A stretch of DNA of 64,000 nt from Antedon mediterranea (GCF_964355755.1 NC_092678.1:15729881-15793880), one strand, 5' to 3'; shown: positions 1,458-54,977, counted from the first letter of the stretch. The notes: generated from the letters alone by a model not told the origin. Made by a program: numbers and translations.

Positions 1458-1529
1458 AGTTCTGTCAATGATGTCAAACCATTGAAAACATTTGCTGATA
1501 ATGTTGTTATTTGATTACTGCCCAAATGC
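1458..1529 (-). CDS. 72-nt LRR exon, intact (HLGSNQITTLSANVFNGLTSLTEL)
   Basis: Minus strand ttttcAG|72 nt|GTgagt, phase 2-2, encodes one typical 24-aa LRR with no stops. Confidence 0.85.
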
Positions 1530-3628
1530 CTGAAAACCGTGAAAAAGCAATAATAATTATATGTATAGTTTCAAGGTACAGTAAACAACCATATTATTAT
1601 TTTACATCAATGTAATTAAAATATAAATAATATGATTCGTGGATATGGATCAACATCTACAATACAATATAACCGACAATAGCCCTATTACAAACACACA
1701 TTTTATTAAATGATGATGATCTATGTATTCTGCTATTTAATTTTTCATTATGGCATAATTTCACACGTCTGCCGGTGGTTATACAGTAACTGAATTAAAG
1801 AGTAAAAGTTTACAGCCAGTGTTAGTAGTAACATCTGGTTAAATGAATACACAGTAAACCCTAATACAATTTTATGCGGAACAAAATAAAATCTGACGAA
1901 TAGTAACAAAATGACAAATAAAAAGCAATTAATATACCTCAGATTTAAGAATAAGAACCTCAATTTTCGATAATTATAATTGAATAACTAAATGTCAATG
2001 TTATAGAAATCAAAAAAGTTGAAATAAAAATTAAAGTGTATAGCATGGTATAAATGTGGATCTCGATGATCAGTGACGTAAACGGATAATATGTATTCGT
2101 CATTGGTGGACATTTATCTGTAGAAGAAGACGGTTACAATAACAGTAAGGATGAGTTCTCATACAATTCTCTCATTCGTGCCGATGAAAGTGATACGTCC
2201 TAAGCCCTCCTTACCACTACTGTAGTAACGGAGGGATAACGCTATATTATAGAGGAAGAAAATAGCAGTATTTGATTTGTGACAATGAAACTATTACGTC
2301 ATAAGTTTTCCTAACTACGAATGGATAAGGAATTATACGTGTAGGGCCTACGTACCAAACTACTGTAGATTTATTTATTTATTTTATGTTCAATCTTCCT
2401 ACATAACAAAAAAAAACATAGGCCTATAGTATAACAGGATAGTAGCGGAAAAGCAAAAGTAATAAAACTGTCATCTTGTGATGCGCTTGACCAGCCCCTG
2501 TCAACTAGAACGATAATATAAAACTGAAATTTTAACAATAAATATAAAAAAATACATAGAAAAATATGCTATTTATAAAATACTAATTAAAGTGTTAGAA
2601 TATAAAAATGAAATTGCTATAAGAACATTTTTATTTCAGGCCTATAAAAGTTAAAAATTCAAATGTATATTTGCATAACTTTTATTTTATAAAATATGAA
2701 AAGTTACAAATCTATAAAATGTTACTTTAAACTGTGTTTAAACTTAAAAAATCGACTCTCCAATAAGATCATTTATGATCGTAACAGAGTTTGGAAAACC
2801 GTACTATACCTGAGTATTTAAAAGCATCAGTACGGGCTCTACCATAATGAAAGGTAAGTATATATTAATGTCGGTTATTAACTAAAAAAAGAACCAACAG
2901 AATCAACATAGATAACAGATGCCTCTCGTAGTCTCATTTTCCTTGATTGGCGAACGAAAAAGCATTCGTAATGTTTATGACGTATGCTGTCATATACTGT
3001 AATTTAATTATGATAATATTAGTTTCCTTTTGGTTAACTTTAGATGATGTTCATTTGAACAATATCAACAGACAAACTAAACAAACACTTAAGTTGCAAT
3101 TTGTTCTAGGTTCATTCTAATTTTGACTTATTTTTTACTGGTGTTTTGGTGTGAAAGGTAAAATCAAGCAACTCCGGAGTTCAAAACAGAGGAGTTGAAC
3201 AGCTGAACAGTCTCCGGATGTGTAGTTACCATGATAGTAGTGGTGTAGTTACTTAAAGAATGGCATGATTTCTAAATTCAACATTGTCTGCTATACAGTA
3301 TCTTCTGAATACAATTTTGTAATAATTATATAACTTCTCATTTAATAAAATCAGTTATAATAACAAAAATTACTGTAATAAAAGTGACGAATCCAAACAA
3401 ACTACACACAGGAGCTTGTGTTAAATTAGTACATGTTTTATTTTATCATTATTAAGATACATTAATCATAATTTTAAAATAAACATCGGGTTCGATTATT
3501 TTAGATTTAAATGAAAATTCTGCAATTGCAAAGGATCAACAACTAAAACGATGACAATAATAATTGTGGTTATCTTACAAAGAAAATATACTATTTCAAA
3601 AGTATGATAAACAATAGCAAGCACTCAC

Positions 3629-3700
3629 AGTTTTGTCAATGATGTCAAACCATCAAACACATTTGCTGTTAATGTAGTTATTTGGTTACCGTACAGCCAC
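3629..3700 (-). CDS. 72-nt LRR exon, intact (WLYGNQITTLTANVFDGLTSLTKL)
   Basis: ttttcAG|72 nt|GTgagt, same phase and LRR consensus as 1458-1529. Confidence 0.85.
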
Positions 3701-3744
3701 CTGAAAACCGTTAAAAACGAAACAAATATTTATATGTATAGTAT

Positions 3745-4378
3745 TACCTCTTTTACACCGTCAGTAAAAATGCAGAGTTGATCCGGAATTGTATAACCCG
3801 AGTCGTAACCGGGACGCAAAAATGCGGAAATGTAGGACAGTGTAAACGACGTAAAAAGTTACCCGGGTCGCTGAATTACCCAGGTAAGTGATGCGGAATG
3901 TATTCAGCGTCAAGAAGTCAACCCGGGACGCACCCAGGATGAACCTGTGTTTGCGGTGTAAAACGCTCAGTGTATCTTTACCCGTTTGTTTACTATCCTC
4001 GCTCACTATAGTATTTAATTTACATACAATTAGGATAAGATTGATTTTGTTTATTCGCTTATTCAATAAATTAAACTTATGGTTATTTGTTATTCATTTT
4101 TATTTCAAGATATTATTCTTCCCGAGTAGACTTATTTTGTGTGAGTATTGCCATAAAACAAACTTGTGGGAGTTATAATGAGCAGACCGTTACTATGGTG
4201 TCTCTTCATGCGTGAGAGGGCGATATTTCGATTGATCTAGAACATTTACACGGGTTGGAATTTTTCAGTGTAAATATACGCAACCCATGTCATTCCCGTG
4301 TTAAGAATCGTGTGTGAAAAGGAAATTTATCCGGACACGACACGGGTTTGTTATAAGCTCGGCGGTGTAAAAGGGGTA
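3745..4378. mobile_element. PIF/Harbinger-type MITE (634 bp)
   Basis: TIRs TACCTCTTTTACACCG / CGGTGTAAAAGGGGTA and a 3-bp TSD TAT; the empty site tatagTATgtctacc is visible in the paralogous unit near 36515-36530. Confidence 0.8.
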
Positions 4379-6154: not shown

Positions 6155-6565
6155 TACCCCTTTCACACCAAATAAGCAAAACTCCGTAAACACTCCGGAG
6201 TTGACGCCCCGGTGTTTTGGTGTGAAAGGGAAATTACATTTTCAATGCATTGCTGTTTTTCCGATCATCCACAAATGATGTACATTCATTAAAAAAAATG
6301 TCATCTACCTCCGTTACGCTTCACCAATAATAACTTTACACATAAAATAATTGTCACCATTTAATTGCAGAAATAAATATTGACTAGCTATAATAATGAA
6401 CTAATCAATCAATTCAATAGCTGACATTTAATTGTATTAAAACGATATGCAATTTTGATATCGTATGGTTTAGTTCATTCGGTCACATACACGGCACATA
6501 GGCCGTATACTTATTTATCGTAGGATTTTGTTATTGTGTTGTTGTGTTTTGGCGTGAAAGGGGTA
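6155..6565. mobile_element. PIF/Harbinger-type MITE, version 1
   Basis: TACCCCTTTCACACCAAA...TTTGGCGTGAAAGGGGTA with TTA TSD; same site occupied at 37338 and 50248. Confidence 0.8.
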
Positions 6566-7338
6566 TTAGAAACGTCGTTTTTGTGACACTGTGTTTCATA
6601 CGGTGGAATGTCATTTTAAACTAAGCTGGTCTAACGTATTTTAAATGAATACAGTGTGTAGAGGTAGGAGGAGAAACTGTTGACGTTGTTTATCTCACAA
6701 CTTGGAAATACAGAACATCATTACATCACATGCCTGTATCATTAGCTTATGAGTTAGGTTATGGTATATGATAGTAGGTGATATATGTGAAACATGTGAT
6801 GTTGTATTACCGAATGTTCCTATGATACTATAGAAATCGAGATACAATTCCAAAAATCAGGTGTATGTTAGACGTTACTCCGGCTTGGAATAGAGGTCTT
6901 AGCTTTAACCAACTTAATTCTGTAATGTGCCTGTACACTTTTTTGAGGCAAACATTATACCGTGTATACATGGAAAGGGTGCCGTATAGACATTATAATT
7001 GCTTAATCCTTTCTGAAACAATGTACAGTTTTAGAATGTTAATTTTAACTTGGCTGGTCCAACAATTTGAGATGAATGCAGTGTGTAGAGGTAGGAGGAG
7101 AAACTGTCGGCGTTGTTTATTTCCTATAAAAGTACAATCGTACGATAATGGGGTGTCCAACGCCAGTGGCCTTACGAAGACGTGTATTTCGAGCTATTAA
7201 AACGTTTTAACATTTTATAGAATATGTCTACAAAAGGCCTGCGTAGTGTGTTGTATGTAAACTAGAATTTGGTAGTCCGATAAATTGTTCAGAGCATACA
7301 AACAACTGCATGTAGATAATTAAATTGTTACATATGTT

Positions 7339-7410
7339 AAGTATTATCTCAGAAGCAAACGCAGAAATGCACCTTGCTCTATGGTAGTTATAGCGTTATC
7401 ATCTAAATAC
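7339..7410 (-). pseudogene. Divergent LRR exon (YLDDNAITTIEQGAF...), frameshifted
   Basis: tttgcAG acceptor at 7411-7412, then an LRR consensus; one T missing relative to the copies at 38688 and 51169; no clean donor. Confidence 0.6.
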
Positions 7411-9817
7411 CTGCAAATAAATCAATATACACACACTTCCAAGGAAGATGTATTGTAAAACTACTATATAACAATACAATAACTAGAATAACAAACAAGT
7501 TTTCTGCTATATTTCATAGTACCGTTATGTAATTTTTTTCTTCATTTCAGTGGCCGATTAGACTTTCTCTGACACACGAATAATTGTCAAAGGCAGGCTA
7601 ATTTTGCCATTATGAGGTGCAAATCTGAGAGAGAGGAAATTATAAAGTGTAGAAACAGATATCACCTAACAAGCAAGCTATTACTGAACCATACAATGTG
7701 AAAATCATAAAAATGGCTAAACTCTGGAAAATGCTATTTTTCACATTTTAACTTAAGTTATTCTTACGGACGGATAACGTGAATAATGTACGTAGGCCTA
7801 CAATCCGAATTAGGTCCGATTTGTTGCACGTGCGAATAAAGAACCAGTGCTAATCCACCGTACGGAGGAAAAATAACGGATTCATCTCATAATTACATTA
7901 TTTTTAATTTAATAATATTTAAGTGATAATAATAATTTAATGTAAAACTAACGAATCGAAGCATCAATACACACAATACAACTACAGTAGCCTATGTGAA
8001 AAATAGTGTTTATTTTTCAATTATACCACATAGTTACGTTCAGTACTGAAATATTTTAGGATTTAAAAGAATAAAATATCTATGTGACGAAGACGGATAT
8101 GACGATCAACCTCAAAAATCATGTGACAGAAATGATTTTAAGACTTGATTTGAATATGGTTATATTGACCATAGTAACATAGATATACAATGTAATAACA
8201 TGATAAAGATATACAAAACAAAATTACAATAAAAAAGCCCCTGGCAATAGCAAACAGTCAAATCCGTCACTGGCCGTCATCTCCGTCACATCTCCGTCAC
8301 AAAGAATCATTGGGAAATTTGATGGAGTTGAGCGTGACGGAGATGATGTATTTAGCATAGGACAGGACAGGATCACCCCGTAGGCATATTTGACAGCGGA
8401 GACGGAGTGCATACTGCTAGATCCATGAATAAATTGTACTTCCAGTTGAAAAAAAACCCAACAATTTTAATTATTTAATGAGTACTATACCGTTCGGATA
8501 TGACGTCCAATAAAGGTACGCAACTTTAATTTTTATAAAACCTTGTCTATTAGGCCTAATTTAGTCTCTAAACCCATGTCTATTCTAGTAGTAGCTGTGT
8601 GGGTGTGTGTGACGTGTGTGTGTTAGGTATGACCAAAGATAGTTACACTATCTTTGGTAAGACACAATCCGAGTAATAAGTCAGCAAAATTAAACAATAA
8701 ACATTACACAAAAATATATTTTTTATTCTCGTGGGTCAAATCTTCCCATCTCATGTGTTCATATACGCGCATTTTTAAAGTTCCTTTGAGTACATGCATA
8801 TTGTTTGATAATAAAATAGCAGAATTAAAAATATACAGTACACAAATTATACACATTCTTTATTCTTGTGGGTCTAAGTTTTCTTTGGGCTATGTCCAAT
8901 GAATTACTACTTTAGTTTAATGTCTTGCCTAGCTGTCGATTAGCCTCGACTCGACACATTTTGTGTGAAGAAGAGTGCGCGAAGGCAATCACGTGAATTG
9001 ATTTAGAATCCTAGGCCTACTGTAGAAAGTATCGTATCGCAGTTGTGTAATCACTTCTTGTTGCTATACGCTTGGGTGCACACGGAACAACAAATTTAAC
9101 TGATGAATTATTCATGTTTATTTTGTGACGTTTCATGAGGGGTCCCCAACTTATGTACGAAAAAAAAAATCGCGATCGGGACATGGGGTTTTATGGGGTT
9201 GCCTGAAATTTATATATTTTTAAAATAACAATATCAATGTTATTATCTTTGGTTGATGTAATTAATTCATCTTACAATAATGTTGATTATGATATAGGCC
9301 TAAGTCAAGAATTTGTATTTTTTAATAAGGAATTTTCAGTCTCTTTCACACCAAAGTACCGGAACACGATTTTAGACACTTACTGAAGAAAAGTTCCTAA
9401 TAAAAGTCCTCTAATTGGAAATGTACAAGATACAATGCACTGTGTCCATTAGATTTTCTACATTTTATGTAACACTTGTTTGTGTTATGCGAGGTTTGAA
9501 CAATTTATGCAATTGAAAATTGGGTGGAATTCCTTGCGCAAATTGAATCCAACTACTCGATTAAAATTGATCAGATTAAAAAATAGTGCAATGTATTTTA
9601 GTATGTGATAAAACCAAAATTAAAATAAACCTGTGACGTATAAATATAAAAATAATGCAAGTCAATTCAACTCAATTCAATTCAAAGTAACATTTATTTT
9701 CTTCAAATTAAAACAGTATACACAATGATGTAAAGAAAGGTAATTAAATTGAAGAAGGCATGTTAACAAAAAAGCAAAAAGCTTGTGACAGACATGCCTA
9801 AACAAAGGTGAAATTTA

Positions 9818-12800
9818 ATTGAAGCATCCCCGGATAACCCACTTCCTGGAGGGCTTTTAATCACACCCTTAATAGTCAAGTTAGAACATATGGGCCCAGT
9901 TAAATTTAGAGTTCCTTTGTCAAATTCTAGTAAAGAAATTAGGCTAAATAGAAACTTTAAAATTGCCACTGCTTTCATCCGCCAGTCTATAACGCATCAC
10001 AGTCCGGAAGTTCACTGTAACTCAAGTACGGCCTCAAACAATTTTAATTTTGATAGCTCGCCAATTTCACATATAGGTAAGGCGAAATTTATTAATTTAC
10101 TTAATAATCATCCGAATGTTTTTTCAAAGAATGATTTAGATATAGTGAGAACTTCGTCTGTAAAACATAAAATACACATAACTAATGACACCCCATTCAG
10201 TCAACCTTGTAGGAGGATACCTGATCTGATTTCAATGATGCTAGGGACCTCATTCAAGATTTATTAAGGAAGAATATCATTAGAGTCCGAAAGCCAGTAT
10301 ATCTCTCCTATAGTATTAGTCAGGAAAAAGAAGACTAACGAAATTCGATTATGTATAGATTACAGACTTCTAAATTCTAGGTCGGTTAGGGACCAATACA
10401 ACGTCCCCAAAATTGAAGATGCCCTTACAACCTTACGTGGTGCCAAATGGTTCTCATGTCTTGACCTCAAATCAGGCTATTACCAAATTGAAATGGCTGA
10501 GGAGGATAAAGCAAAAACTGCATTTTGGTGTCCATTGGGATTCTATGAATTTAACCGAATGCCCCTAGGGATTACTAATGCCCCGCCACCTTCCAACGAC
10601 TGATGGAAAAGTGCATGGGGGAGTTAACATTTTCCAACGTTCTAGTTTATTTAGATGACTTACTAGTTTTTTCAACCACATTAGACGAACACCTTGCTAA
10701 GTTAGACAAAGTATTATCTAGGCTTGAAGAGTATGGCTTGAAACTATATCCAGACAAGTGCAATTTTGCCCAAACGTCCATTAAGTGCTTGGGCCATGTC
10801 ATATCGGAGGATGGGATAAGCACTGACCCAGATAAGGTAGAGGCTGTCAAATCTTGGCCTCGCCCCTCAAATGTAAAAGAATTGAAATCATTTCTAGGTT
10901 TTGCTGGTTATTATCGACGATTTATACAGCATTATAGCCATATTGCCAAACCATTAAACCAACTTATGACTAAGTATGACCCAATACGTAAACGAGGTAA
11001 AACTTTCAAAAAACCGAAATCAAATACTCCCTCAGACAGGCGCCCTAGTCCTAATACTCCATTTGGTACTAATTGGTCCGAATCATGTCAGGTGGCATTT
11101 GATGTACTAATAGATAAATTGTCTTCAGCCTCTATATTAGGATTCGCAGACTACAATTCACCATTTATTCTACATACCGACGCTAGCACAAGCGGGTTAG
11201 GTGCAGCCCTATATCAAGAGATAAATGGGATAAAGAGGGTAATTGCCTATGCTAGTCGTGGGTTATCCAAAAGTGAAGCCAATTATCCTGCTCATAAATT
11301 AGAGTTTCTTGCCCTAAAATGGGCTGTGACTGAGAAATTTACTGACTATCTTTATGTTCAACTATTTGTAATTTACACGGATAATAACCCCTTAACGTAC
11401 GTGTTGACGACAGCTAAGCTTGACGCTACAGGCCAAAGGTGGCTTGCCGCCCTGGTCAATTACAACTTTGATATTAGATACAAAGCAGGTAGAAACAATC
11501 AAGATGCAGACGGTCTTAGTCGTCGCCCACGTGACCCCCCTTCCAATGACTTTGAATACGAACAATATCAAGAGAAAGCTAAAGCTGACGAAGTGTTAGG
11601 TAGAGTAAAATGTTCATCCTGTTCGTTCACAGCAGTCTGTAATGCTAAAATAGTTAATACGTCTACTATACCTAATGATACAACACCCTTAGTTGAGTCA
11701 GTTAGTGATTCTCCTGATGCAATCCCCGCCATCTATGATAACCCTATTAGGCCTATAGATGGGCAGTCAACCTTGCCTAATGTTACTGCAGCGGAGTGGG
11801 TAGAGCATCAACAACAAGACCCTAATATTAAACCTATTTTTAAATTTGTATATAACAAACGGAAACCTACACAAGATGAACTCACAAAATTACCCGAGGA
11901 AACTAGGCTACTCCTGAGACAGTTTGATACATTATTGGTAAAAGATAATATTCTATACCGCCAATTTGTAAATATTATCGGAGCTATGCAATTGCAATTA
12001 GTACTTCCAACCGCTTATAGAAATAAAGCATTTACTGGCTTACATAATGACATTGGTCACCCTGGGATGGAACGGACCTTGGATCTTGCCCGATCCAGAT
12101 TTTATTGGCCTCGTATGTCCTCCCAAATTGAAGATAAATGTAGGTGTTGTGAACGTTGTGTCCGAAGAAAGGCCCGTGCTACCAAAGCAGCCCCCCTAGT
12201 TAGTGTCAGAACCACCATGCCTATGGAATTAATGTGTATTTACTTTCTGTCTATAGAACCTGATTCTAAGGATACTAGAATGTGTTAGTTGTGACTGACC
12301 ATTTCACTAGATATGCTATTGCTATCCCAACCAAGGACCAAAAAGCCCCCACAGTAGCAAAAGCTCTGTGGAATAACGTCTTTCAACATTATGGCTTTCC
12401 AAAACAATTACATTCAGATCAAGGCAGAGATTTCGAATCAAAAGTTATCCAAGATTTATGTAAATATTTAGGAGTAAGAAAATCTCGTACAACCCCATAC
12501 CATCCCCAGGGTAATGGTCAGGTAGAACGGTTTAACCAAACCCTGCTTAAAATGCTAGGCACTCTAGAAAACCAAAAGAAAGAACATTGGCGAGACCATG
12601 TTGCACCCTTAGTGCATACATACAATTGTACTAAGAATGATGCTACGGGAATGTCCCCATATTATTTAATGTTTGGTAGAGAAGCCCGCCTCCCAATTGA
12701 CATCCAACTAGGTATTGACCCAAACCAAAATGGTTCACTTTCTCCAAGGGGATATGCCGATAAATTAAGACATCGCCTAGAAACAGCACACCAATTAGCC

Positions 12801-13100
12801 CAGGAAATGGCAACCTAGAAAGCTAATGCCAATAAAGCCCGATATGATAGTATAGTGCGTGAATGCACTATTTACAAGGGTGATAGGGTACTAGTAAAAA
12901 ATGTGCGCTTAAGGGGTAAACATAAACTTGCTGATATGTAGGAAGAAACTATTTATGTGGTTTTGGAACAAATAGGGGACAACCCTGTGTACAAGATAGA
13001 GCCTGAAGATAGTGATGCAATACTAGAACATTGCATAGAAATATGCTACTCCCATGTAGGTTTGCTACAGCAAAGGAAACTCCCCTAAAAGTGGTACTAA
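9818..13100 (+). pseudogene. pol: Decayed Ty3/Gypsy pol (RT, RNase H, integrase), 5'-truncated
   Basis: RT motifs CIDYRLLN, LDLKSGYYQI and YLDD; RNase H TDAS...ELEF-like and YTDNNPL; integrase HHCC, SDQG and PQGNGQVERFN. Split by frameshifts near 10220, 10590 and 12280 and by stops after 12818. Confidence 0.92.
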
Positions 13101-13881
13101 AGAAAAACAAAGACAGAGAAAGCCTGTCACTCGACAAGGGCACAAAACGCCTAAGTCAACTGTCCCACAGCCAGAACTATCTGGACATGAAACAAGTGAT
13201 AGTGATTTAGATTATTACATTCCAAATTCAGTTCACACACTTCAACAACCAACAGATCCATCTATACCTCCTAATCTGGGTAATGACCAAAACGTGGGTC
13301 AAACTATTATTGACACCCCAATTGTTAACGAAATAGAACCTCAGATCAATGAGGAAGATGTAATAGTTAACCATGATATTAATGATATCGAAGATGCTGT
13401 TATTCCTAATTTAGACAACATAATATTGATAATGCTAATAATGAGCCTGATATTCAACATGATGTCCACAAACCACAGGCTAATACAGATGATACCTTAC
13501 GTCCTAAACGGCTAAGAACATAGCCAGAAAGGTTAGGTTATTTTGCTCCCGGCCAACAAGTTACATCAACTTCTAATATGGTGGTCCAAGTCATTGGGAT
13601 GCAAAACCAAATGTTTGCTGATATGATGCAATCTCAATTATCACTTTTAAGAGGCTCTAAGCCGAATTAGTTTTATAATGTTATTTTTACTATATGTTTA
13701 TATATACACGCCAATTTTGATTCCTTTTCAATGTAATATTTTTTTTCACTGTCTATTTTTATGTATTAAGACAGGTGAATTACGATCAAAAACTAAATGG
13801 TGACGTTTTTAATGTTAATGTTGGTTACCATTGAGTTGTTGAGCGTCGTCCGGGGACGGACGAATATGTTGGCAGGGTGAG

Positions 13882-15981: not shown

Positions 15982-17501
15982 AAAATATAAATGTACATAA
16001 CATGGATTAAACTAAATAAGAAAATAAATTAAAAAAATAATGTTGGTATAAATTAAGAACTGTTCGTCTTCTTGTTACTCATCATTATAATTATTATCAT
16101 AAAATGTAATATAATAAAAATTAATACTTGGATGTAATATATTTTTAAAGTTTAAATGAAAGGCTTTTCTTAGATACAGCATCTTTAATATTTGAAGGTA
16201 GTTTATTCCATAGTTTAGGGCACTAAATATTTTTGAAAACATATTGAAATGATGTTTTTTTTATGAAGAGGGTAACGCATTAAAAGATTAAAATGTTATT
16301 AAAATTGCCCAATTTCAAAATAAACAAGCTTGTGCAGATTCAAATTGCGAAATCGTTGCGCTATTTTGAATTGTGCATATAACATTCACATTCATACTAA
16401 TATTCATCCCTATAACATGCGTACTTCGTTTTTATTATTTTTCTTCTGTTCATTAGTATGATTTTTGTCCCATTTATTTGCACTTTTTCCGTTTCATACT
16501 TTAACATGGCCTACTGTAGTTGACGTGAGGCCGAGTTGACTTGAAGCCGAGTTGATTAGAGGGCGAGTTGAATTTAGCCTGGGTGGTTTAGGGCCTTTGA
16601 TTATAATAAAATACAACAGTATAATTAGTTTTTATAATATTGAACATTTTAAATTTATTATACTCTTTTTCCTCTTGTTATTTCTACTCTGAAAGACCTA
16701 CGAACCAAAAATATAAAATGTAATAGGAATTTTAAAAGGAAAGGAAAGTTAAAACTGATCGTTTTTACTTTTTGCACATTTCACGGCTCCACAAGGTCTT
16801 AACCAACTTCTGAAATGTGACTGTACACTTTTTTTTGTACACATGGATAAGGTGTCGTAGAGACATATGTATTGTCTATTGCTAAATCTTTTCTGAAACT
16901 TGTTTTTTTTAAGAATGCTGTCCATAGATATAACACCAAACTACTGATTTGATACGAATTGTATAATTGTAACAAAATGTGATATGTTCCTTACCAATGA
17001 TCAGCAAATGCTGAATGGATCACCCTTATTAAATATGGTTAAAATAAATAAATAAATAAAATAAATTAAACCATGCTAGTAGAGGTGCAGTAATTAAATA
17101 ATTACATGATTTGTAAATAGTTTTTATTATCACAGCGTACAACACAGTGTGACGTATTGTCTCCAAACTCTTATGAATGATGAATTGATATGTATTTTAT
17201 AATAATTATGTAATTTCTCAATTAATAAAACATACCAGTTAAAATAACAAATTACTGTAATAAAACAGACGGATCCAAGTAAACTCCATTATGGTAAAAT
17301 ATTACAGTCTTCTTTTATCATTATTAAGATAATAATGATAACAAAACAACAAAAAACACCGGGTATTATTATTTTAGATTTGGATGAATATTCTGTAATT
17401 GTACAGCATAACAAGTAAAACGATGACAATAATAATTGTGGTTATCTTACAACGAAAATATACTATTTTCAAAAGTATGATAAACAACAGAAAGCACTCA
17501 C

Positions 17502-42750: not shown

Positions 42751-45700
42751 TCAGTAACTTGTTGCATTATACAAACGTTTTATGAATCGTTTTGGCGATC
42801 CACTTATCGGTATCTGTTTATCATTAATGATCTCTTTAATCAATTTCTCTGTATCGTTATATCTGTCAATATTCCACCAAAATGTGCGATCATTAGATTC
42901 TTGTTTTGCTTTATCAGTGTTGTGTTTGACTAAAGTCGGTTTAGAATACGAAACTAAAACTTGGAAATGTCCTGCTTTAAATCTACCTCGGTTTAATGTA
43001 ATATTTGAATCATTAGGTGCTGTCATAATTAGATTAGTTTGTTCCTTGATTTGTTCTTCTTTCATTTGGAATGGGGCTGCTAATCTCATGTTATTCTCTA
43101 CACAGTCAATGTAAGGTTGCAAGTTAAGGGGTTCTACTTTAGTTGGATGTGTAAGGGTATCTGATTGCAATTTGGCGGGTGTCCTATCATGTTCGTCTAC
43201 AAATTCAACATTGGTTTCGTCATTTACTACATTAATGGTGTTTTGGATTTTATCGTTATTATCATCAGTGGGTTCATTCGACAATTGTTTAAGTTTTTGT
43301 AGATGTGTAAAATGTTTGCGTTCTTTAGGCGTTCTCATAAAACAAGGTTTCAGTCTCTTATAATTGAATACGTCGCGAAGTATTTCTCCTTTAATCGTCG
43401 CTAGGATGTAGTGTGTTCTGTCTAGTACTTCATGAATTACTAATGGTCCGACCCATTCTGCGGCGATTTTCTTTGAATTTGCCGTTAGTGATGATGATGT
43501 TGGCTTATATAAATATACGAGTTGTCCTACTGAGTAAATTGGACTTTTTTCTAAGCGTTGGGAAATCTTTGAGTTTTGGACGTTTTGTTGTGTTCGCTGT
43601 AATTGTAGCATTGTCTGTGAAATGTTTTGAAATTTCTTCTTGAGATGATGAAAGTATTCTTCATAGGAATGAGACAATCCTGAAATAGGGTTAAATGCTA
43701 ATGAGGTCAAACTTGGAGGTTGGCGGCCAAAAACTAATTCGTAAGGGAAGTGGTTTCCTAGATGTGGGGATGAAAACGAGTTATAAGCATAACATGTTGT
43801 TGATACAAATCTAACCCAATCTGTTCCGAATTGGTTAAGGTTGACCTTTAACAGGTCCGATATGGTGCGGATATGACGTTCAACTTGTAAACTACCGTGA
43901 TTGTGGACGCTAATGATTTTCCTATCAATATTAAGGGTGTTACATAATAGTGTTAATAATTTTCCTGTAAGGGAGGTTGCTGCATCTGAAATAAGACGAG
44001 ATGGGGGTCCAAAAATACTGATTACCTTTTGAATTAGTGCTTCACAAATTGTTTCGGCATCAATGGATTTCAAAGGTACACAAATCAAAAATCTAGTTAT
44101 CTCATCACATACTACCACAATATGTTTAAAACCTGAAGGTGATGTTGGCATACTCTTAAAATCTAGACTGAGTGTATGAAAGGGACGGTAAGTTGCTGGT
44201 ACTCGATCGTGTAAAGGACGTAATTTATCGGTTTTGGGACGAAATTGTTGACATCTAAGACACGCTTGGGTATAATTGTTGACTTTCTCGAACATAAGAG
44301 GCATGTAAAATAATTTCCTAATAGTAAGGTAAGTACGCATCGTACCTTGGTGGCTACTTAACAAATTGTCGTGATACTGAGAAATAACAGTCTCGGCTAA
44401 GTTTTCAGGAACAGCTAATTGCAATACAAATTCTCCACCTTTATCTTGGAAAAATAAACGGAATAGTAAACCGTTGCACAATATGTACTGCTCTGACTTA
44501 TTCTGAACTGCACGAGCTGCTTTCTTATCAGCTGGAAGGATATCATGAGCTAAATAATCGTAAACTGGCTTAAAAAATGGTGAAGTTTCTTGTTCAACAC
44601 GTAATTGTTTAACATCTACTGGGAGGTTATAATCTCTAATTATCTTTCTTTGAATAACATCCATTAATCTATCTAAGTCTCGTTGTTTTGGGATGTGTGC
44701 TGATTTAAATTCAGTTATGTTGGGTACTAGTGGTTTGAGCGATGTATACAATTCAACTGGTACATTTCGATGTGTAGTATCTTTGCTTTGCTTACTTTTG
44801 TCTACTAGTCGTTCCTCTGGAGGTTGTCGAATGTTTACATTACGTATTGGGGGTGGTGTTACGATAGGTGGCGTTATGATAGGCGGTGATCGATGTGCGT
44901 TTGTTTGTTGTCTCGTGATTATTTGTGGTGTAGCGGTAGGTTGAGGTGTAGGTCGCGTGTTTGTTGTCACTGGGTTTTGATTAATGACGGGCGTTTGTAC
45001 TGGTTTGGGTTGATGTAGGTCAGGTATATTTATTCCCATTTTCTTGGCGTATGACCTTGTTACTGGTCTGCAAGTAGATGTGTTTGTAATCGGGTTAAGA
45101 GATTCAGTCTCTATAATATTAAATGCAATGGGTACAACTTGATCAATTTCGGAATCGTCGTCACGAGGGGCTCGGGAGAGAAAATCTGCTAAAACTAATT
45201 CAGTTCCTTTCTTATAACCAATTTGGAAAATGTATCCGGACAATCGTAATATTAGTTTTTGTAAACGGGGTGTACATGGCTGATCTTTTGAATTCCAAAT
45301 TTGTACAATTGCTGAGTGGTCTACGAATGCATCAAATTCGCAACCCTTTAGTAAATGTCGAAATGCTGAAACGTTAATGTAAAGTCCAAATAACTCTAAT
45401 TCTGTGACGCTATATCGTTGACTGGCTTGTGGTAAGATTTTGGAATAATAACCTATTATGTGTTCTTTACCGTTTACTGTTTGTGTTAAATATGAACCTG
45501 TTGCGGTTCTTGAAGTGTCGCTATATAGCGTAAATCTACCTTCTTTTCTAGGCATTTGAAGAGTTGGTGGTTTAACCATTAATTGTTTAATTTCGTCAAA
45601 TGCTTTCTGGTGGTCAGTAGACCAAACAAATTTTCGGCGTTTACTTGCGAGTGTATGTAACGGACGTAAAATTGATTGTATTTGAGGGAAAAAATGGGAT

Positions 45701-47466
45701 ACATAATTTACTGCACCAATAAATCGTTTAGTTTCTTTATGGGTTTGTGGGGCTGGCAAATTTCGGATAGCTGCACACCTGTCGCCTAATGGTCTGATAC
45801 ATGCGTGTCTTGAAGAATTAATCAGGATGTTGTGTCCCATATATTGCCCTTTATTCTTGAATAACTTACATTTCTTTAGACAAATTCTAAAACCATTTAA
45901 TTGTAGGGCTTGTAAAACGGAAACGAGGTGCTGCTTATGAGCAAATTTGTCTTGGCTAAATAAAATAATATCATCGTGATGGGCGATACAGAATTCTCTA
46001 GAATTTGGGATTTCATTTAAAATTTCGTCAATCTTTGCTTGAAATATACCTGGCGAAACGTTTAATCCTTGTGCTAATCTCTTATAATAATAATGTTTTC
46101 CACCATGATATGAAGCTATACCTGTATATTGTTGGGCATGTTCGGCTAATGGTACACAGTGGAACGCTGATTTCAAATCAATTACGCTAAGAATCTGTGA
46201 ATTAGCGTTACCTATTGTTTTCAAAGTTTCAGCTAATAATGGGAATGGGTGATTAATACGTTTTATCCTGGAATTTAGATAGCGAAAGTCTGTGACAACT
46301 CTTTCATCTTTTGAATTTTTCTTTGAAACAAGAAGGACAGGGGAAGTATACGATAGGTGTCCTACTGATAAGATTCCTAGTTTGACTAATTTGTTCAATT
46401 CGGCCTCAATAACATGTTTGTCTTTGTCTGTCGCGAAGTATGGTCGAATAAAAAATGGTTCATCGTTAGAGAGGTGTATGTCAGCTTTGAAGTTTGGGCA
46501 GCTAGATAGTTCAACATAAAGTGAAAATCCGTTTCTGTTTTGTTGTAATGTTTTATACAAATCCTCTTTTTCTCTATGTGTTAAAACGCTGTCTGTTAAA
46601 TCAACTTGTTTTCTAATTATTTCTTCCTCGGTTAAAGATAGCAATGGGTCTGTACGTTCTAAATGTGGGTACTTGTTTGCGTTGTCATTGGTCAACTTTA
46701 TTCTATCTATTGGTAGGTTATTAGTAACTGTTACAAGGTTGGTTAAGTGAAGGCTCGCGATAGGTTGATGTGTATTTAGAGATACGTTTCTGTTTGTGTT
46801 GTTAGTGATATCAATGTTGGTTTCTTCTCTATGTAATTTCACTAACATATCTGATGGACAAAGTTTTGAAATATGGGTAGTTGCATGTAGAACAACATCA
46901 GAATTGCGTACAAAGGCGGGAACCCTTCCTTTTAATTTAACTGTTTTAGTATCACCGGGTTTAAGAAAAATCTTGTGTACTGGACGAAAGCTAAAAATCT
47001 TTGGTCTAATGCGAAAGGTGTTTTCCTTAAAATTTAAAGTACCGTCGAGTTCAGACAATATTTCGGTTCCAAGTATCAGGTCAATACCTGTTAAATTGTT
47101 AACGATTAATGCTGAAATTTTAAATTTGTGTCCTTGGATAAATAATTCGAATTGCACTAAGTGGTTGGCATATAAGAAGTCACCGTTACCTAATCGAAAT
47201 TTAGTTGTGTTCACTTTAATTGGCTTTAGACGCGATAAATAAAGTGAGGAATTAACGTACGATTGTGAGATTATAGTTCTAGTTGAACCACTGTCAAATA
47301 AAGTTAAAACATTTCTACCATCTGGTAAATTTCCTTTAACGTAATTTCTGTCGTTAAGTAACAAATCGATCTTATCTGAATTCCCTAAGTATTTTGCCTT
47401 AAAATTGTCGTATTTAGTATGGGGGGCCAGATTATAGGCGGCATCTAGTCCCCTTTTTAAAAATCC
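42751..47466 (-). CDS. pol: Intact Ty3/Gypsy pol (protease, RT, RNase H, integrase), reached by -1 frameshift from gag
   Basis: LFDSGS protease; VTDFRYLN, IDLKSAF, AQGL and AHHDD RT motifs; SDTS/ELEL/VDH RNase H; HHCC plus D,D,E integrase. The frame is open from the GGATTTT site at 47466-47460 through the 1537-aa ORF. Confidence 0.95.
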   Translation of the reverse strand, partial: GFLKRGLDAAYNLAPHTKYDNFKAKYLGNSDKIDLLLNDRNYVKGNLPDGRNVLTLFDSGSTRTIISQSYVNSSLYLSRLKPIKVNTTKFRLGNGDFLYANHLVQFELFIQGHKFKISALIVNNLTGIDLILGTEILSELDGTLNFKENTFRIRPKIFSFRPVHKIFLKPGDTKTVKLKGRVPAFVRNSDVVLHATTHISKLCPSDMLVKLHREETNIDITNNTNRNVSLNTHQPIASLHLTNLVTVTNNLPIDRIKLTNDNANKYPHLERTDPLLSLTEEEIIRKQVDLTDSVLTHREKEDLYKTLQQNRNGFSLYVELSSCPNFKADIHLSNDEPFFIRPYFATDKDKHVIEAELNKLVKLGILSVGHLSYTSPVLLVSKKNSKDERVVTDFRYLNSRIKRINHPFPLLAETLKTIGNANSQILSVIDLKSAFHCVPLAEHAQQYTGIASYHGGKHYYYKRLAQGLNVSPGIFQAKIDEILNEIPNSREFCIAHHDDIILFSQDKFAHKQHLVSVLQALQLNGFRICLKKCKLFKNKGQYMGHNILINSSRHACIRPLGDRCAAIRNLPAPQTHKETKRFIGAVNYVSHFFPQIQSILRPLHTLASKRRKFVWSTDHQKAFDEIKQLMVKPPTLQMPRKEGRFTLYSDTSRTATGSYLTQTVNGKEHIIGYYSKILPQASQRYSVTELELFGLYINVSAFRHLLKGCEFDAFVDHSAIVQIWNSKDQPCTPRLQKLILRLSGYIFQIGYKKGTELVLADFLSRAPRDDDSEIDQVVPIAFNIIETESLNPITNTSTCRPVTRSYAKKMGINIPDLHQPKPVQTPVINQNPVTTNTRPTPQPTATPQIITRQQTNAHRSPPIITPPIVTPPPIRNVNIRQPPEERLVDKSKQSKDTTHRNVPVELYTSLKPLVPNITEFKSAHIPKQRDLDRLMDVIQRKIIRDYNLPVDVKQLRVEQETSPFFKPVYDYLAHDILPADKKAARAVQNKSEQYILCNGLLFRLFFQDKGGEFVLQLAVPENLAETVISQYHDNLLSSHQGTMRTYLTIRKLFYMPLMFEKVNNYTQACLRCQQFRPKTDKLRPLHDRVPATYRPFHTLSLDFKSMPTSPSGFKHIVVVCDEITRFLICVPLKSIDAETICEALIQKVISIFGPPSRLISDAATSLTGKLLTLLCNTLNIDRKIISVHNHGSLQVERHIRTISDLLKVNLNQFGTDWVRFVSTTCYAYNSFSSPHLGNHFPYELVFGRQPPSLTSLAFNPISGLSHSYEEYFHHLKKKFQNISQTMLQLQRTQQNVQNSKISQRLEKSPIYSVGQLVYLYKPTSSSLTANSKKIAAEWVGPLVIHEVLDRTHYILATIKGEILRDVFNYKRLKPCFMRTPKERKHFTHLQKLKQLSNEPTDDNNDKIQNTINVVNDETNVEFVDEHDRTPAKLQSDTLTHPTKVEPLNLQPYIDCVENNMRLAAPFQMKEEQIKEQTNLIMTAPNDSNITLNRGRFKAGHFQVLVSYSKPTLVKHNTDKAKQESNDRTFWWNIDRYNDTEKLIKEIINDKQIPISGSPKRFIKRLYNATSY

Positions 47467-48413
47467 TGCTGGTGGCTAGGGTAGTAATTGTTTGACTGTT
47501 GGTATGGGTATGGCGGGGGATAGTTTCCGTAAGAACGGTTTTGTTGTCGGCAGTACCTTGCTATGTGGCCTGGTTTCCCGCAGTAATAACAGGTTGGGGG
47601 AGGTTGTCTATATCTTGGGGTCGGTGGGGTCTGGAATCGGGGTTTGTATGGGCTTGGGCTTCGGTTTCGTCTTGGGATATAATTTCGGGTGGGGGAACGT
47701 GAGCGTCGAGTATCATCATTAAGGGATCGTTTTGTTGTGGCCATGTCTAACTTGATAGAATTTATCTCATGTTGGAGCGATTCGAGACTATCTGTTTCCT
47801 TATTGATATTGAATGAAACTTCCCGTGTGGCATCATCTACGGAAAGGTCAAGGTAATTTTGTGTGCTATTTACGATATTGTCAATAGTGGCATCGATTGG
47901 GGTGGACATGGCTACAGCTGCTCTACATTTTGGTGGAAGGGTCGAAATAAATTTATTCTTTATCTGCTGGTCAGCGTATCCAATTCTGTCTGCGGCTTGT
48001 TTGATTTTGGTTAAGTGTTTTTCGGCATTGTCGCCAGTGGTGTAAGTAATTGAATCGTATTCTCTTATGTGCGCATAGATTGATTTGTTTTTACTAAACC
48101 TGTTGATGAATTGGGTTTTTAAGGATTCCAGTGAATCGAACTGCTTTCCCTCAATCCAGAGTCTAGCTTGGCCCTGGAGGCTACGTTTAAAAATACTTAT
48201 TACATTAATTAATTGGGCATTGTTTACAGGGTTTTCTAAAGTGTGGGCCTCAAGGTAGTCGGTAAACGATAAGTAATGTGCACTACATTGGTCGTGATCG
48301 GTTATGGAACCGTCATATCTTTTGGGAAGGAAATCGGTTTGTCTTAGGTGGGGCACGGGATGAGGATTGACGGGCTCATTTAAAATTACTTCGTTATCAA
48401 CAACGTCGACCAT
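47457..48413 (-). CDS. gag: Gypsy Gag with CCHC zinc knuckle
   Basis: 318-aa ORF with a retrotransposon capsid-like FKRSLQGQARLW motif and CYYCGKPGHIARYC. Confidence 0.93.
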   Translation of the reverse strand: MVDVVDNEVILNEPVNPHPVPHLRQTDFLPKRYDGSITDHDQCSAHYLSFTDYLEAHTLENPVNNAQLINVISIFKRSLQGQARLWIEGKQFDSLESLKTQFINRFSKNKSIYAHIREYDSITYTTGDNAEKHLTKIKQAADRIGYADQQIKNKFISTLPPKCRAAVAMSTPIDATIDNIVNSTQNYLDLSVDDATREVSFNINKETDSLESLQHEINSIKLDMATTKRSLNDDTRRSRSPTRNYIPRRNRSPSPYKPRFQTPPTPRYRQPPPTCYYCGKPGHIARYCRQQNRSYGNYPPPYPYQQSNNYYPSHQQDF

Positions 48414-49149
48414 ACTTTATAATAATAATTATTAATCAAATATCAAAAACAATTTAGTGTATATATATGTAAACTCTCACTTTTTCAATCAAGGTTACAA
48501 ATCAAAAATCAAAATGGTTTTGACTTACCCCAAAGGCTTTGGATCCAATTAAAAATGAATTAAAGGAATGCAAAAAGTGTTCAAAAATGTTTAAATGTTC
48601 AAACAACGAATTAAAGAAATGTTAAAGTGCTCATCAATGTTCAACTTTTCAAACAACGAATTCAAAAAAAATGCGAAAGGTGTTCATCAATGTTCAAAAA
48701 AAGTAAATGTTAAAAAAAAACGATCGAAAGAAAAAAAAACGGCGTGAAGTTGAAAGTGTCCAAACGAAACAGTTCTTGTCCGCTTGCTTCTGTTTTGATT
48801 CTTCTTGGGTCTTCCTCGATTATCTTCTTTGTCTTTATCCAATGGTTATAATTTGATAAAGTTTCTGCTTGTCTCGATCTCATTCAAAAATAATTTCAGC
48901 TTGTCTTTTGTGTCTTCCTCGATTATCTTCTTTGTCTTCATCCAATGGTAATAATTTGATAAAATTTCTGCTTGTCTCGATCTCATTCAAATATAATTTC
49001 AGCTTGTCTTTTGAGTCAAAGTAAATTTCTGGTTTTCTCCTTTCAAACAAATATGGTTATTTTTGTCTTCGTCTTCGTCTTCGTGTCTTGTTAAGTGTTT
49101 ATTTCTTGTTTTCTCACTCTGTTCCTTATGAAATTCGGGTCTTCCACCA

Positions 49150-51097: not shown

Positions 51098-51169
51098 AGT
51101 TTTAACTCAGAAGCAAACGCAGAAAATGCACCATGCTCTATGGTAGTTATAGCGTTATCATCTAAATAC
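51098..51169 (-). pseudogene. Divergent LRR exon (YLDDNAITTIEHGAFSAFASELKL)
   Basis: tttccAG acceptor, 72 open nt, no canonical donor. Confidence 0.6.
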
Positions 51170-51915: not shown

Positions 51916-51987
51916 AGTATTATCAATGATGTCAAACCATCAAACACATTTGCTGATATTGTAGTTATTTGATTACTGTATAAACTC
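51916..51987 (-). pseudogene. 72-nt LRR exon with mutated donor (SLYSNQITTISANVFDGLTSLIIL)
   Basis: Acceptor and frame intact; donor TTgagt, the same lesion as 34242-34313. Confidence 0.75.
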
Positions 51988-53547
51988 CTGAAAACCGTAA
52001 AAAATACGATAAATAAATATACACAGTACCAAAGGATAGTACCTGAAACCATGAACAATGCGTTAAATAATAATTATTACAGTTCCCATGTACATTACGA
52101 TCAAGAAGTATTTATTTATAATTCTTGAAAAAACAGATAGCTGTATTATACTAACAGAAACCAAAGAGCTTCTGTAGCCGATTAGGAGTGCCTTTCCAAC
52201 AGTACAGTCATTAAAATGTATACACAAGGATATAATAATACTTGTTGATGTTACTTTGGTCCTTATTACCATATTATTAAATGACGATGATGCAACATGA
52301 ATTCTGCTATTTTATTTTTCATTGTGGGATTATTTTATCATAGAAGAACAAATTTAAAGATATTACGCTTGAACGTATTGTACATGAAACAGATACTTTA
52401 GAAGTATTAATGTATAAATATAATAATTATTATTAGGCTTAGGGTCAAACTGTGCCTGCAAATAAAAAAGATCCAAAGCACTACACAGCTGAGCCCCCTG
52501 GTTGAATGACAACACATTGTTCACCCGATACAATTTTCTGCAGAACCAAACAAAGAATATACAAAAAGAAATTAAATTTAATTAATTTTAGATAAACAAT
52601 TTAGAATAATGGCATATTAAATTATCGATAATTATAATGATGATGATTCTCTCATTTGTGTCGATGCAATTGATAAGTCATAAAGTTCACCGAACTTATT
52701 ATAACGATATATGTGTAGGGTCTACGTAACAGATGCATCCCAGTATGACGATTTCATAAGAGATATATTATAACGTTTTGTTCTGCGTGCTGCTCAACTT
52801 ATTACTGTCAACACTATTGCAGTATATTTTACATAATCGAAACAATGTCGAGCATTCCTTCTCGTGTGGACAACCACATAGAGAAACTTGAACATGTGAA
52901 CGCTGTTATGTTACCCGGTTCTCAGTCTTCACATACGACAATTATTTACCCTGAGGACAATTTGGTAATACAGAGCCTCATATCATAATAGTGCTATCTG
53001 TATCATTAGCTTATGAATTAGGTTATGGCCTATCATAGTTTGTGATACATATGAAACATGTAAATGATGCTGTATTACCGAATGTTGCTATGATGCTACA
53101 GAAATCGAGATACAATACCAAGAATCAGGTTATGTTAGACGTTACTTCGGCTTGAAATGGAGGTCTTAGCTTTAACCACCTTCTGAAATGTGACTGTACA
53201 ATTTTGTGAGGCCAAAATTATACCTTGTACACATGGATAAGGTGCCGTAGAGACATATACTATTGTCTAATTGCTAAATCCTTTCTGAAATTGTTATTTT
53301 CTGAAGAATGTTGTCCATAGATATAACACCGTACTACTGATTTGATACGAATTGTATAATTGTAACATAATGTGAAATGTTCCTTACCATGCTAGTAATG
53401 GTGCAGTAATTAAATAATTACATGATTTGTAAATTAGTTTTTATTATCACAGAGTGTAACACAGTGTGACGTATTGTCTGCAAACTCTTATGAATGGTGA
53501 ATTAATATGTATTTTATAATAATTATGTAATTTCTCATTTAATAAAA

Positions 53548-54665
53548 CTCGTGTCTATTTTCAGTCACTATTGACTTCAGTGGAAATTTCTTCTATGAAT
53601 GGATTAGTAAATGGAAGCATGAACACCAGTTGATAAAACAGTTCCATTTTGAGTTTGCAATCATTCGTGAAAGGCCAAGTGAAGTCACAAGTCCAAGGAA
53701 TAAAGGTTTTCATCCTATAAAAAAAATTGTACGCAATCAATTGAAACTAATAAATATTTTACACACGCTATAATAATAATTCGCAAACAGTGATGGTGCT
53801 GGAATATGCATACAAGGGGTCAACATGCGTGATGCAAAAATAAAAAAAATATTGATTTTGCCCTGCCTTTGTCGACTATAAATCATGACATAAATAGGCC
53901 AAGTCTTGAGTCGATGTCTATATATGGCGCTACTCTATAGTATGTGCCTATATAGGCCTCGTATCGTACCATATAGGCTCAATAAATGTATTAATTATTG
54001 TTAAGTTAAGTACGCTTCTAGGCCTGTATATTATTATAAATAGAAATCTAGGCCTATTATTTTTCTTGAACACCAAAAGCCTGAACTTATTTAATTAACA
54101 TATCCTGGCCATAGTAACTAAATACAACAGTCCTCTGAGTCTGAGTATAGGCTCTAGTGTGTTTAAAGCCCACCCACCTACGTAAAACACGTGGGTATAG
54201 CCATAAAACTTTGAATGAGTGGTAAACTGGGCCTAGATCTGCCGTTAAAACAATTTTAATTCTAGAGGTTCAACAACTATTTAAGTACCAAAAAATGTTT
54301 ATTTTGGTTCTTTAAAAAATTCAACAGACACGTGGTGCAATTTTTGCCGTAATCATAACAAAAAGCAACAAAAAAACTATTAAAATATCTCATTATTTCA
54401 ACTACTCACCACGACCAAAGTATTCAAGCTACGTATCTCAAAATCGATTCCCACAACAACCAGGACATTCCTAATGAATATTCATGAGAAATCTCACCGA
54501 TTTCAACAATCAAAGGCTTCTGATTCGTTGATTAAATATGATGTAATTATTTTCCCTAAATAAAAACAAATCATTTCCGCGTTTGTATAGCGCCCTCAAT
54601 ATCGAAAATATTTAACTTTTACCGATAGAAGGCTCACTACTTTATGTCGCTATGAAACAGCCGTG
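53548..54665. mobile_element. One-ended Chapaev-like DNA transposon remnant
   Basis: Interrupts the host motif ttaataaaa|cataccag and ends GAAACAGCCGTG, resembling the 33829 terminus; the other end was not found. Confidence 0.55.
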
Positions 54666-54931
54666 ACATACCAGTTATAATAACACATCACTGTAATAAA
54701 ACAGACGAATCCAAGCAAACTGCATTGTGTTAAAATATTACAGTTTTCTTTTATCATTATTAAGATAATAATAATATTAAAAAAAAAAACACCGGGTAGG
54801 CCTATATTATTTTAGATTTGGATAAATATTCTGTAATTGTAAAGGATAAGTAAAACGATGACAATGACAATTGTGGTTATCTTACAACGAAATATTATTT
54901 TCAAAAGTACGATAAATAAGAGACAGTACTC

Positions 54932-54977
54932 AAACACATTTGCTGGTAATGTTGTTTTTTGATTACTGTCCAAATCC
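54932..54977 (-). pseudogene. Internally deleted LRR exon (DLDSNQKTTLPANVF)
   Basis: Acceptor intact; the 3' part of the exon and the donor GT were removed by a deletion at short microhomology (tca). Confidence 0.7.

Follow-up and report, generated by a model that had tools for sequence, protein, structure and literature searches.

Does an array of small exons, each encoding a single LRR, constitute a library from which receptors are diversified, or is it the repeat region of one large gene? The question is raised by the window, i.e. the whole 64,000-nucleotide stretch of Antedon mediterranea DNA analysed here, in which an initial annotation had listed eight such exons. On balance, the exons found, 13 in all, probably encode a portion of the extracellular LRRs of a single large and probably working receptor gene shaped by germline exon birth-and-death.

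Exon copies, duplicated blocks, and inserts

The window contains 13 copies of a one-repeat LRR exon, five intact and eight broken, all of them on the minus strand. The low-end coordinates of the eight exons listed initially were all correct (8/8), but only four of these exons combine the AG/72 nt/GT structure and an open frame in phase 2-2; two have lost their donors, one is frameshifted, and one is truncated. The acceptor TTTTCAG is present in all eight and the GTGAGT donor is retained in five. Five further copies had been missed, namely the intact exon at 59014-59085 and four copies of a second type (type B) with acceptors at 7410, 28656, 38688, and 51169, all of which are decayed. The copies are as follows.

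1458..1529, minus strand: type-A exon, clade A1, intact 72-nt phase 2-2 LRR (AG/GT, Pfam LRR_8)
3629..3700, minus strand: type-A exon, clade A2, intact 72-nt LRR (AG/GT, Pfam LRR_8)
7340..7410, minus strand: type-B exon, decayed by a 1-nt deletion, acceptor present, expected donor site empty
17502..17573, minus strand: type-A exon, clade A1, intact 72-nt LRR (AG/GT, Pfam LRR_8)
28626..28656, minus strand: type-B exon, cut by a rearrangement after 31 nt
34242..34313, minus strand: type-A exon, clade A3, donor GT changed to TT, then an in-frame stop right after the repeat
36406..36476, minus strand: type-A exon, clade A2, 71 nt by a 1-nt deletion (frameshift), both splice sites intact
38617..38688, minus strand: type-B exon with acceptor, no GT after nt 72
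39292..39363, minus strand: type-A mosaic exon, intact 72-nt LRR, upstream flank of A3, core grouping with A1
51098..51169, minus strand: type-B exon with acceptor, no GT after nt 72
51916..51987, minus strand: type-A exon, clade A3, donor GT changed to TT, then an in-frame stop right after the repeat
54932..54977, minus strand: type-A exon, clade A1, truncated by a ~28-nt deletion that took the donor G, Lys in place of a core Ile
59014..59085, minus strand: type-C exon, divergent, intact 72-nt phase 2-2 LRR, GTAAGT donor (LRR_8 E 0.0016)

When both strands were scanned for open frames of the form AG + 66-78 nt + GT/GC with LRR features, scored out of 8, 12 candidates reached at least 6; the five with the full score of 8/8 were all 72 nt long and on the minus strand. 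No plus-strand LRR exon attained the full score, and the best plus-strand nhmmer match was partial (E 0.048). Each 72-nt exon encodes one 24-aa LRR in the register xLxxNxI...LxxL, with the LPxxxF of the typical extracellular consensus. The exons are no chance resemblance: the four intact type-A peptides, each taken singly, all match Pfam LRR_8 (E 2e-4 to 3e-3, scores under its curated cut-off). The junction bases are identical throughout, every exon being phase 2-2, ending CT, and beginning G, so that gaining or losing a copy would leave the reading frame unchanged and restore the Leu of LxxLxLxxN.

The exons have been copied together with their introns, the duplicated blocks measuring 150-1500 nt and sharing 70-95% identity. 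Besides this segmental duplication, copies have been lost, some through mutation of the donor and others through a frameshift or a deletion. The insert load comprises three Pfam-supported Gypsy elements, one LINE, and two foldback elements in a window of 33% GC, and the resident Gypsy has named relatives in Holothuria (sea cucumber, 58%) and Patella (limpet, 48-51%). The main blocks and inserts are listed below.

6544..7997, unstranded: intron block around a type-B exon, with copies at 37828-39195 (87%) and 50305-51770 (85%)
8108..16987, unstranded: intron segment with a copy at 24205-28626, each copy broken up by different insertions
9812..13515, plus strand: frameshifted ORFs of a Gypsy-type LTR retrotransposon, intronic passenger
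19296..24003, plus strand: LINE with a 278-aa ORF1-like frame and a 917-aa RT frame, intronic passenger
42751..48416, minus strand: Gypsy-type element whose gag (319 aa) and pol (1574 aa) frames are open, intronic passenger
56416..58125, minus strand: Gypsy-type pol fragment, intronic passenger

An assembly artefact as the source of the whole array was rejected, as the copies differ by 3-23% and bear different insertions. A 370-nt contig of sample X1 is identical to 7823-8192 with zero differences. The 71-nt length of the copy at 36406 may reflect an assembly indel in a T3 run; unbroken ORFs of 4.7 and 2.7 kb suggest that such indels are rare. Sample X8, compared over 700-20000, covers 30 of 30 bins including introns in contigs of the same size as those of X1, and was therefore treated as DNA; no exon-exon link was found in this range among the 15 joints listed of 137.

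The reported absence of recognisable terminal exons from the window holds within the limits of the Pfam and tblastn searches. A Pfam scan of 265 of the 278 minus-strand frames of at least 36 aa revealed no other domain, signal-peptide and membrane exons having no Pfam model; two weak matches, to Spo7 and DUF6051, were both under the cut-off, and the 13 frames left out were known LRR frames, a frame already scanned, transposon edges, and tandem repeats. Searching 252 LRR proteins against the window by tblastn gave nothing besides LRR, and neither approach found 7TM, LDLa, Ig, TIR, LRRNT, or LRRCT frames between the copies. Rhodopsin-type 7TM and LDLa modules and a ROC-COR GTPase module were likewise not found within the window. 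Exon-profile protein searches (493, 4117, and 63 matches) returned no close orthologue. Bacterial-looking proteins dominate these lists, and one of them gives the best identity, 83% over one repeat; 20 of the 63 short matches resemble read-throughs of intron plus one repeat. Only generic LRR clusters were found in a protein-cluster atlas, a degenerate DNA exon pattern had 0 metagenome matches, and the related-locus search left one locus from 167 candidates (51% GC), which lacks an AG+72+GT frame.

Conversion and concave-face variation

Conflicting ancestry along the exons indicates conversion between copies. A PHI-like test on the exon copies detected recombination (P 0.010, 68 informative sites). 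In AU tests, neither region tolerates the clade of the other: p-AU is 0.007 for the upstream clade on the core of the exons and 0.017 for the core clade on the upstream part. The clades tested had been named only after the informative sites had been inspected; it is these conflicting trees that point to gene conversion. A downstream intron island at +6..+56 is conserved among copies. Together with the duplicated exon-intron blocks, these results bear out the initial proposal that unequal crossover and gene conversion have acted here.

Amino-acid variation is clearly concentrated at concave-face codons. These six of 23 codons contain 15 of the 23 first- and second-position changes (P 9e-5), compared with five changes at ten other surface codons (31/8008 codon permutations, P 0.004) and three at seven core codons, one of the latter located in the truncated copy. 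Among all 24 rotations of the codon mask, the true concave mask ranks highest (15 changes; runner-up 12), and the most variable codons are 1, 3, 4, 11, and 23. Pairwise pN/pS is 1.9-3.3 at concave codons and 0.2-0.3 elsewhere, values that few independent synonymous changes underlie. The initial view of the exons as the variable LRR portion of a large gene is supported, and the variation centres on the predicted ligand face.

An excess of concave-site change over the neutral rate is only suggestive. Over all copies, changes per site are 1.25 at concave sites and 0.8 in the upstream intron. The stricter comparison gave 9/24 concave versus 30/169 upstream intron sites (P 0.047), which became 6/24 versus 26/169 (P 0.20) without the mosaic copy; other choices of pairs or flanks gave P 0.03 and 0.0002. 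Within clades, scaffold codons have changed at about the intron rate (10/158 versus 34/477, P 0.45, overlapping pairs), and hence there is no sign of recent purifying selection.

Likeness to known LRR systems

VLR modules are donor cassettes without splice sites that lie around an incomplete gene. The present locus resembles a VLR locus in its 24-aa typical-class LRRV-like modules and its variable concave face, whereas five copies here have full AG/GT sites and all have been copied with introns; VLR arrays also carry LRRNT and LRRCT cassettes, none of which was found here among minus-strand frames of at least 36 aa within the window. The VLR resemblance noted initially stands as far as the 24-aa LRRV-like match goes, but the consensus is that of a generic typical-class LRR, which matches designed LRRs, LRRC15, and LGR4 as well as VLRA, VLRB, and VLRC (180 matched sequences). 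In Dscam-type clusters, conserved selector elements pair with a docking site, and one cluster exon enters each transcript. The conserved intron island could be likened to such a selector, but no long complement to it was found within the window (best perfect matches 13-15 nt, AT-rich near-palindrome); any docking site might be located beyond the window. The repeats of Slit/LGR-type animal genes are old and divergent, in contrast to the recent, near-identical copies with introns seen here. Frame-preserving one-repeat typical-class LRR exons are nonetheless described for Slit and for gonadotrophin receptors/LGRs in part of Hoss et al. 2019 (PMC6642158), and phase-2 introns for gonadotrophin receptors in part of PMC11378527. 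Phase-2 one-repeat exons, as in LGR or GRL101-type LRR-GPCRs, are common to many other families, and despite the LGR4 and LRRC15 matches the window offers neither a 7TM nor another domain by which to assign the locus to one of them.

The closest described parallel in process lies in brown algae. Type I exons of their ROCO genes encode one 24-aa LRR per 72-nt phase-2 exon (Zambounis et al., PMC3341825; Teng et al. 2024, PMC11378527, each in part), and the former describes, for Ectocarpus, inactivated intronic LRR exons, recombination, and concave-face selection, with sites 3 and 23 selected in type II exons. The one-repeat 72-nt phase-2 exons, the inactivated intronic copies (here 8/13), the recombination, and the concave-face variation are shared with the present locus. 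The type I register, however, ends LxLxxNxLx, whereas the register here is what PMC3341825 calls type II; ROCO copies also occur on the non-coding strand, whereas none of the 13 here is antisense; and ROCO genes have ROC-COR, while the present locus belongs to an animal host and has an extracellular LPxxxF consensus. Type II exons of Ectocarpus LRR-kinases have the same register, and their selected sites are among the most variable codons here. The sections of PMC3341825 on which this comparison draws report no inactivated or reshuffled type II exons, in contrast to the inactivation and conversion found here. The pattern is already described, its process in brown algae and its exon layout in human genes. 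In the open-access literature listings, no animal typical-class LRR gene appeared with a comparable number of dead intronic copies, a negative of narrow scope.

Among animal-named proteins, only the 'protein slit-like' of Ptychodera flava appears in the 120 matches listed of 493 (57% identity over one repeat); it has LRR, Ig, and membrane-type segments, the non-LRR parts of which have no match in the window. The Biomphalaria cluster of GRL101-like LRR-GPCRs is described, in part of PMC12297450, as a rearranged and variable invertebrate LRR-receptor locus. The likeness to both lies in repeat or locus pattern and does not show orthology.

A probable large receptor gene and its alternatives

In the preferred reading, unequal crossover between repeated introns would alter the repeat number, at little cost because the copies are frame-neutral. 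Conversion may homogenise the scaffold codons and ~56 nt of downstream intron, while ligand-face codons would stay divergent through relaxed constraint or diversifying selection. Splicing would join the five intact exons over introns of 19.7, 21.7, 13.8, and 2.1 kb and pass over the broken copies, and the terminal exons would lie outside the window; candidate families are LGR/GRL101-type GPCRs, LRR-Ig-TM proteins, and secreted LRR proteins. Recent exon duplication, conversion, and ligand-face variation would together fit a recognition protein facing changing ligands, which makes the gene a reasonable candidate for a receptor in innate immunity, symbiont sensing, or gamete recognition. A point against this reading is the 71-nt copy at 36406, which, with both its splice sites retained, would disrupt the reading frame of any transcript that included it.

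The main rival is a dead allele or paralogue with the same history, that is, a transposon-filling pseudogene whose concave-face variation is a relic. This is a serious but unlikely account. The eight broken copies, the frameshifted copy with intact splice sites, the insert load, and the lack of purifying signal within clades would all be expected of it, but five exons, including the divergent type C, retain frame, core residues, and both splice sites, and every copy lies on one strand; moreover, Ectocarpus has dead intronic copies alongside expressed ROCO genes, according to part of PMC3341825. It is rather improbable that a live gene uses regulated or stochastic skipping of its cassette exons to build many isoforms, so that binding surfaces would be assembled combinatorially inside a single animal. 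Such skipping has precedents in portions of reports on brown-algal ROCO (PMC11378527), human NLRP3 (PMC6642158), and crab VLR2 (PMC10045472), and it suits the symmetric exons with identical junctions, the location of the variation, and the 71-nt copy that a live gene is already obliged to skip. However, only five usable exons in 58 kb allow at most 32 skip patterns, the island has no long docking-site complement in the window, and duplication history alone would yield frame-neutral exons. A two-level scheme, with germline conversion from dead intronic copies under diversifying selection and combinatorial skipping in immune cells, appears quite improbable; if true, the VLR design would have a splice-based invertebrate counterpart, one that could serve to model how a VLR cassette library might arise out of an LRR gene rich in introns.

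Fragments of several tandem paralogous genes would explain why blocks recur in changing order, as might be expected from the rearranged haplotypes of snail LRR-GPCR paralogue clusters (part of PMC12297450), but all copies are co-oriented and none of the domain frames searched for lies between them, which makes this reading very unlikely. A VLR-like library, whose copies would donate sequence to an incomplete receptor gene by somatic gene conversion, is extremely unlikely. VLRs are assembled somatically in lymphocytes from an incomplete germline gene by CDA-driven conversion (part of PMC13428168), and the consensus fits LRRV modules, sequence has been exchanged between copies, and even broken copies could serve as donors. 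On the other hand, the modules bear splice sites and were duplicated along with kilobases of intronic sequence, there are just 13 copies of three types in 64 kb, LRRNT and LRRCT cassettes were not found, the conversion observed is a fixed feature of one assembled sequence that can be explained without a somatic step, and the resident Gypsy has its named relatives in sea cucumber and limpet. The initial proposals of a cassette library and of an undescribed immune or allorecognition system find no support in this comparison, given that 8/13 copies are broken, that the modules are spliceable and intron-copied, and that their register is common elsewhere (20/63 short matches, Ectocarpus type II). 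Were long reads to reveal combinatorial isoforms or somatic conversion, the locus would allow the origin of VLR-type cassette libraries to be tested in an invertebrate.

Contigs of organisms B and C fall on the exon flanks, those of X9 at 1226-1423 and 1600-1790 (range 700-20000). Summed contig depth gives no copy number, and the exon-flank joints of X5, at depth 175-284 versus 34-49 on two long contigs, give a weak hint that the exon array is multi-copy in relatives.

One-repeat LRR exons and their state

The LRR exon array is a real feature of the window, and it is richer and more decayed than the initial annotation reported. All eight exon positions given there were correct, and each exon has TTTTCAG as its minus-strand acceptor. 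Four of them (1458, 3629, 17502, and 39292, named by position) are intact 72-nt phase 2-2 exons; the other four are damaged. Profile and splice-signal scans added five further copies to these eight (type A), namely four of type B and one of type C. The window thus holds 13 copies, all 13 on the minus strand, of which 5 are intact and 8 are decayed.

One-repeat LRR exon copies in the window
1458-1529, 3629-3700, 17502-17573, 39292-39363, minus: type A, intact, 72 nt, phase 2-2
34242-34313, 51916-51987, minus: type A, GT donor replaced by TT, then in-frame stop
36406-36476, minus: type A, 71 nt, both splice sites intact
54932-54977, minus: type A, truncated
7410, 28656, 38688, 51169, minus: type B, decayed
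59014-59085, minus: type C, intact, divergent

Pfam LRR_8 was matched unaided by the peptides of the four intact type-A exons and of the type-C exon. A scan of both strands of the window gave 12 candidates, and the five with full score were exactly the five intact exons. Three type-A exons start with GT, as does each of the four type-B exons.

Duplication and mixed ancestry

Self-alignment of the window showed that the exons were copied together with intron sequence, in blocks that reach 1.5 kb and share 70-95% identity, with changing order and differing later insertions. On the upstream flank, the eight type-A copies sort into three clades: A1 (1458, 17502, and 54932), A2 (3629 and 36406), and A3 (34242, 51916, and the mosaic copy 39292). 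Identity between A3 and A1 is 54-66% in the upstream 60 nt, 80-89% in the exon, 79-94% in the first 56 nt of the downstream intron, and 49-57% at +56 to +120. Informative sites upstream group 39292 with 34242 and 51916, while by those in the core 34242 and 51916 join 3629 and 36406, and 39292 joins clade A1. A PHI-like test for recombination gave P 0.010, and each partition rejects the clade of the other (p-AU 0.007 and 0.017, with the truncated copy left out and the groups named after the informative sites had been seen). These conflicting partitions reflect gene conversion or crossover between paralogous exons, which bears out the unequal crossover or gene conversion proposed initially.

Downstream of each type-A exon, at +6 to +56 (e.g., 17440-17495), lies an intron island that includes a short AT-rich near-palindrome and shows 79-96% identity across all clades, compared to 39-61% in the flanks beyond it between A3 and the other clades. 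It could be a conversion tract or a splicing element; a search of the window found no docking site for it. Clade A3 also carries an extra acceptor-like site ~55-60 nt upstream of the true acceptor (34374, 39419, and 52042, minus), directly followed by GT; these AG|GT sites resemble recursive-splice motifs.

Variation on the concave face and its interpretation

The positions of the concave face within LxxLxLxxNxL follow from established LRR structure, and mapping the codons onto this motif assigned six codons to the face. Amino-acid variation is concentrated on this predicted ligand face. The six codons hold 15 of the 23 first- and second-position changes, compared to 5 in ten other surface codons (permutation P 0.004), with pN/pS of 1.9-3.3 versus 0.2-0.3 elsewhere, and the true mask was the best among 24 rotations. 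Between non-overlapping pairs, concave sites exceeded flank sites (6/36 versus 17/289, P 0.03; 11/36 versus 22/295, P 0.0002, including the mosaic copy). In a stricter comparison, which set the four 5′ concave codons against the 60 nt of intron upstream, P was 0.047, rising to 0.20 when the mosaic copy was excluded. Within clades, the scaffold codons showed no greater conservation than introns. Positive selection at the concave codons is therefore only suggested.

A live receptor gene that evolves in the germline by exon gain, loss, and conversion is the reading we somewhat favor. Because all five intact exons begin with G and end with CT, gain or loss of copies would disturb neither the frame nor the LRR core, and unequal crossover in the repeated introns could thus alter repeat number cheaply; conversion would homogenize the scaffold while binding residues diverge. 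A working gene must skip the 71-nt copy 36406. A dead allele, in an array with this many decayed copies, is possible, if clearly less probable than such a live gene. Combinatorial splicing as the working principle appears rather improbable, and a splice-based diversified receptor marginally more so. Among invertebrates, LRR receptors that are spliced or rearranged have precedents in crab VLR2 (PMC10045472) and snail GRL101 clusters (PMC12297450). Neither the 265 minus-strand frames examined, out of 278 of at least 36 aa in the window, nor a tblastn search of the window with 252 LRR proteins, one of which has LRR caps, Ig, and membrane-type segments, revealed any further coding domain. This upholds, for that scope, the earlier remark that no terminal exon is recognizable, and the gene ends therefore probably lie outside the window. 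Several genes instead of one would be very unlikely, and a somatic VLR-like library is the least credible of these readings. The VLR likeness noted initially is present but generic, without specificity to VLR, whose defining feature is somatic assembly (PMC13428168). Human genes, too, include typical-class LRRs with an exon-modular layout (PMC6642158).

The brown-algal ROCO genes, as described in PMC3341825 and PMC11378527, shuffle 72-nt phase-2 LRR exons, with inactivated intronic copies, recombination, and selection on the concave face, and the present array likewise combines such exons with inactivated copies, recombination, and a concave-face focus. However, its register is type II of PMC3341825 (xLxxNxI...LxxL), so that the array, though working alike, is not a member of this ROCO class; no ROC-COR module was seen in the window. 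Among 63 short database matches, 20 look like intron-plus-one-repeat read-throughs in the register of the array, and 15 end directly after the repeat; judged by their protein text, these read-through-like matches would be single LRR exons. The database entries P0382-P0429 resemble spurious gene calls, each placed over a single eukaryotic LRR exon in the same register, and offer a lead to further one-repeat exon arrays.

Mobile elements and other contents of the window

The window (33% GC) contains three Pfam-supported Gypsy-type inserts, one LINE, and two foldback elements. In the Gypsy-type element at 42751-48416 (minus), the gag and 1574-aa pol frames are open and slightly overlapping; aligning 41300-50000 with itself by BLAST revealed no LTR pair for it. 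The named relatives of the open pol are from sea cucumber (58%) and limpet (48-51%), which suggests a marine invertebrate as the host without favoring one phylum. The foldback element at 59132-62726, with arms 96-99% complementary and built of 18/41-bp and ~120-bp tandem repeats, begins 47 nt upstream of the type-C acceptor, and the second (24456-27007, arms 88-96% complementary) was inserted into one of the copies of a duplicated intron segment. The open frame at 1-666 (minus), which lies 800 nt downstream of the last exon, has no supporting Pfam match, and we take it to resemble the beginning of a retrotransposon gag. At 16518, 18973, and 28144 there are short tandem arrays of a 16-bp unit (3-4 units, in both orientations), which probably form the core of a small mobile element. 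Of the three sequencing runs X1, X5, and X8, the last, at first taken for RNA, behaves as DNA. Contigs of all three join 14945 to 15812, omitting 866 nt and sharing an identical stretch of 18 letters in between; these genomes thus contain a repeated element in a deleted form.
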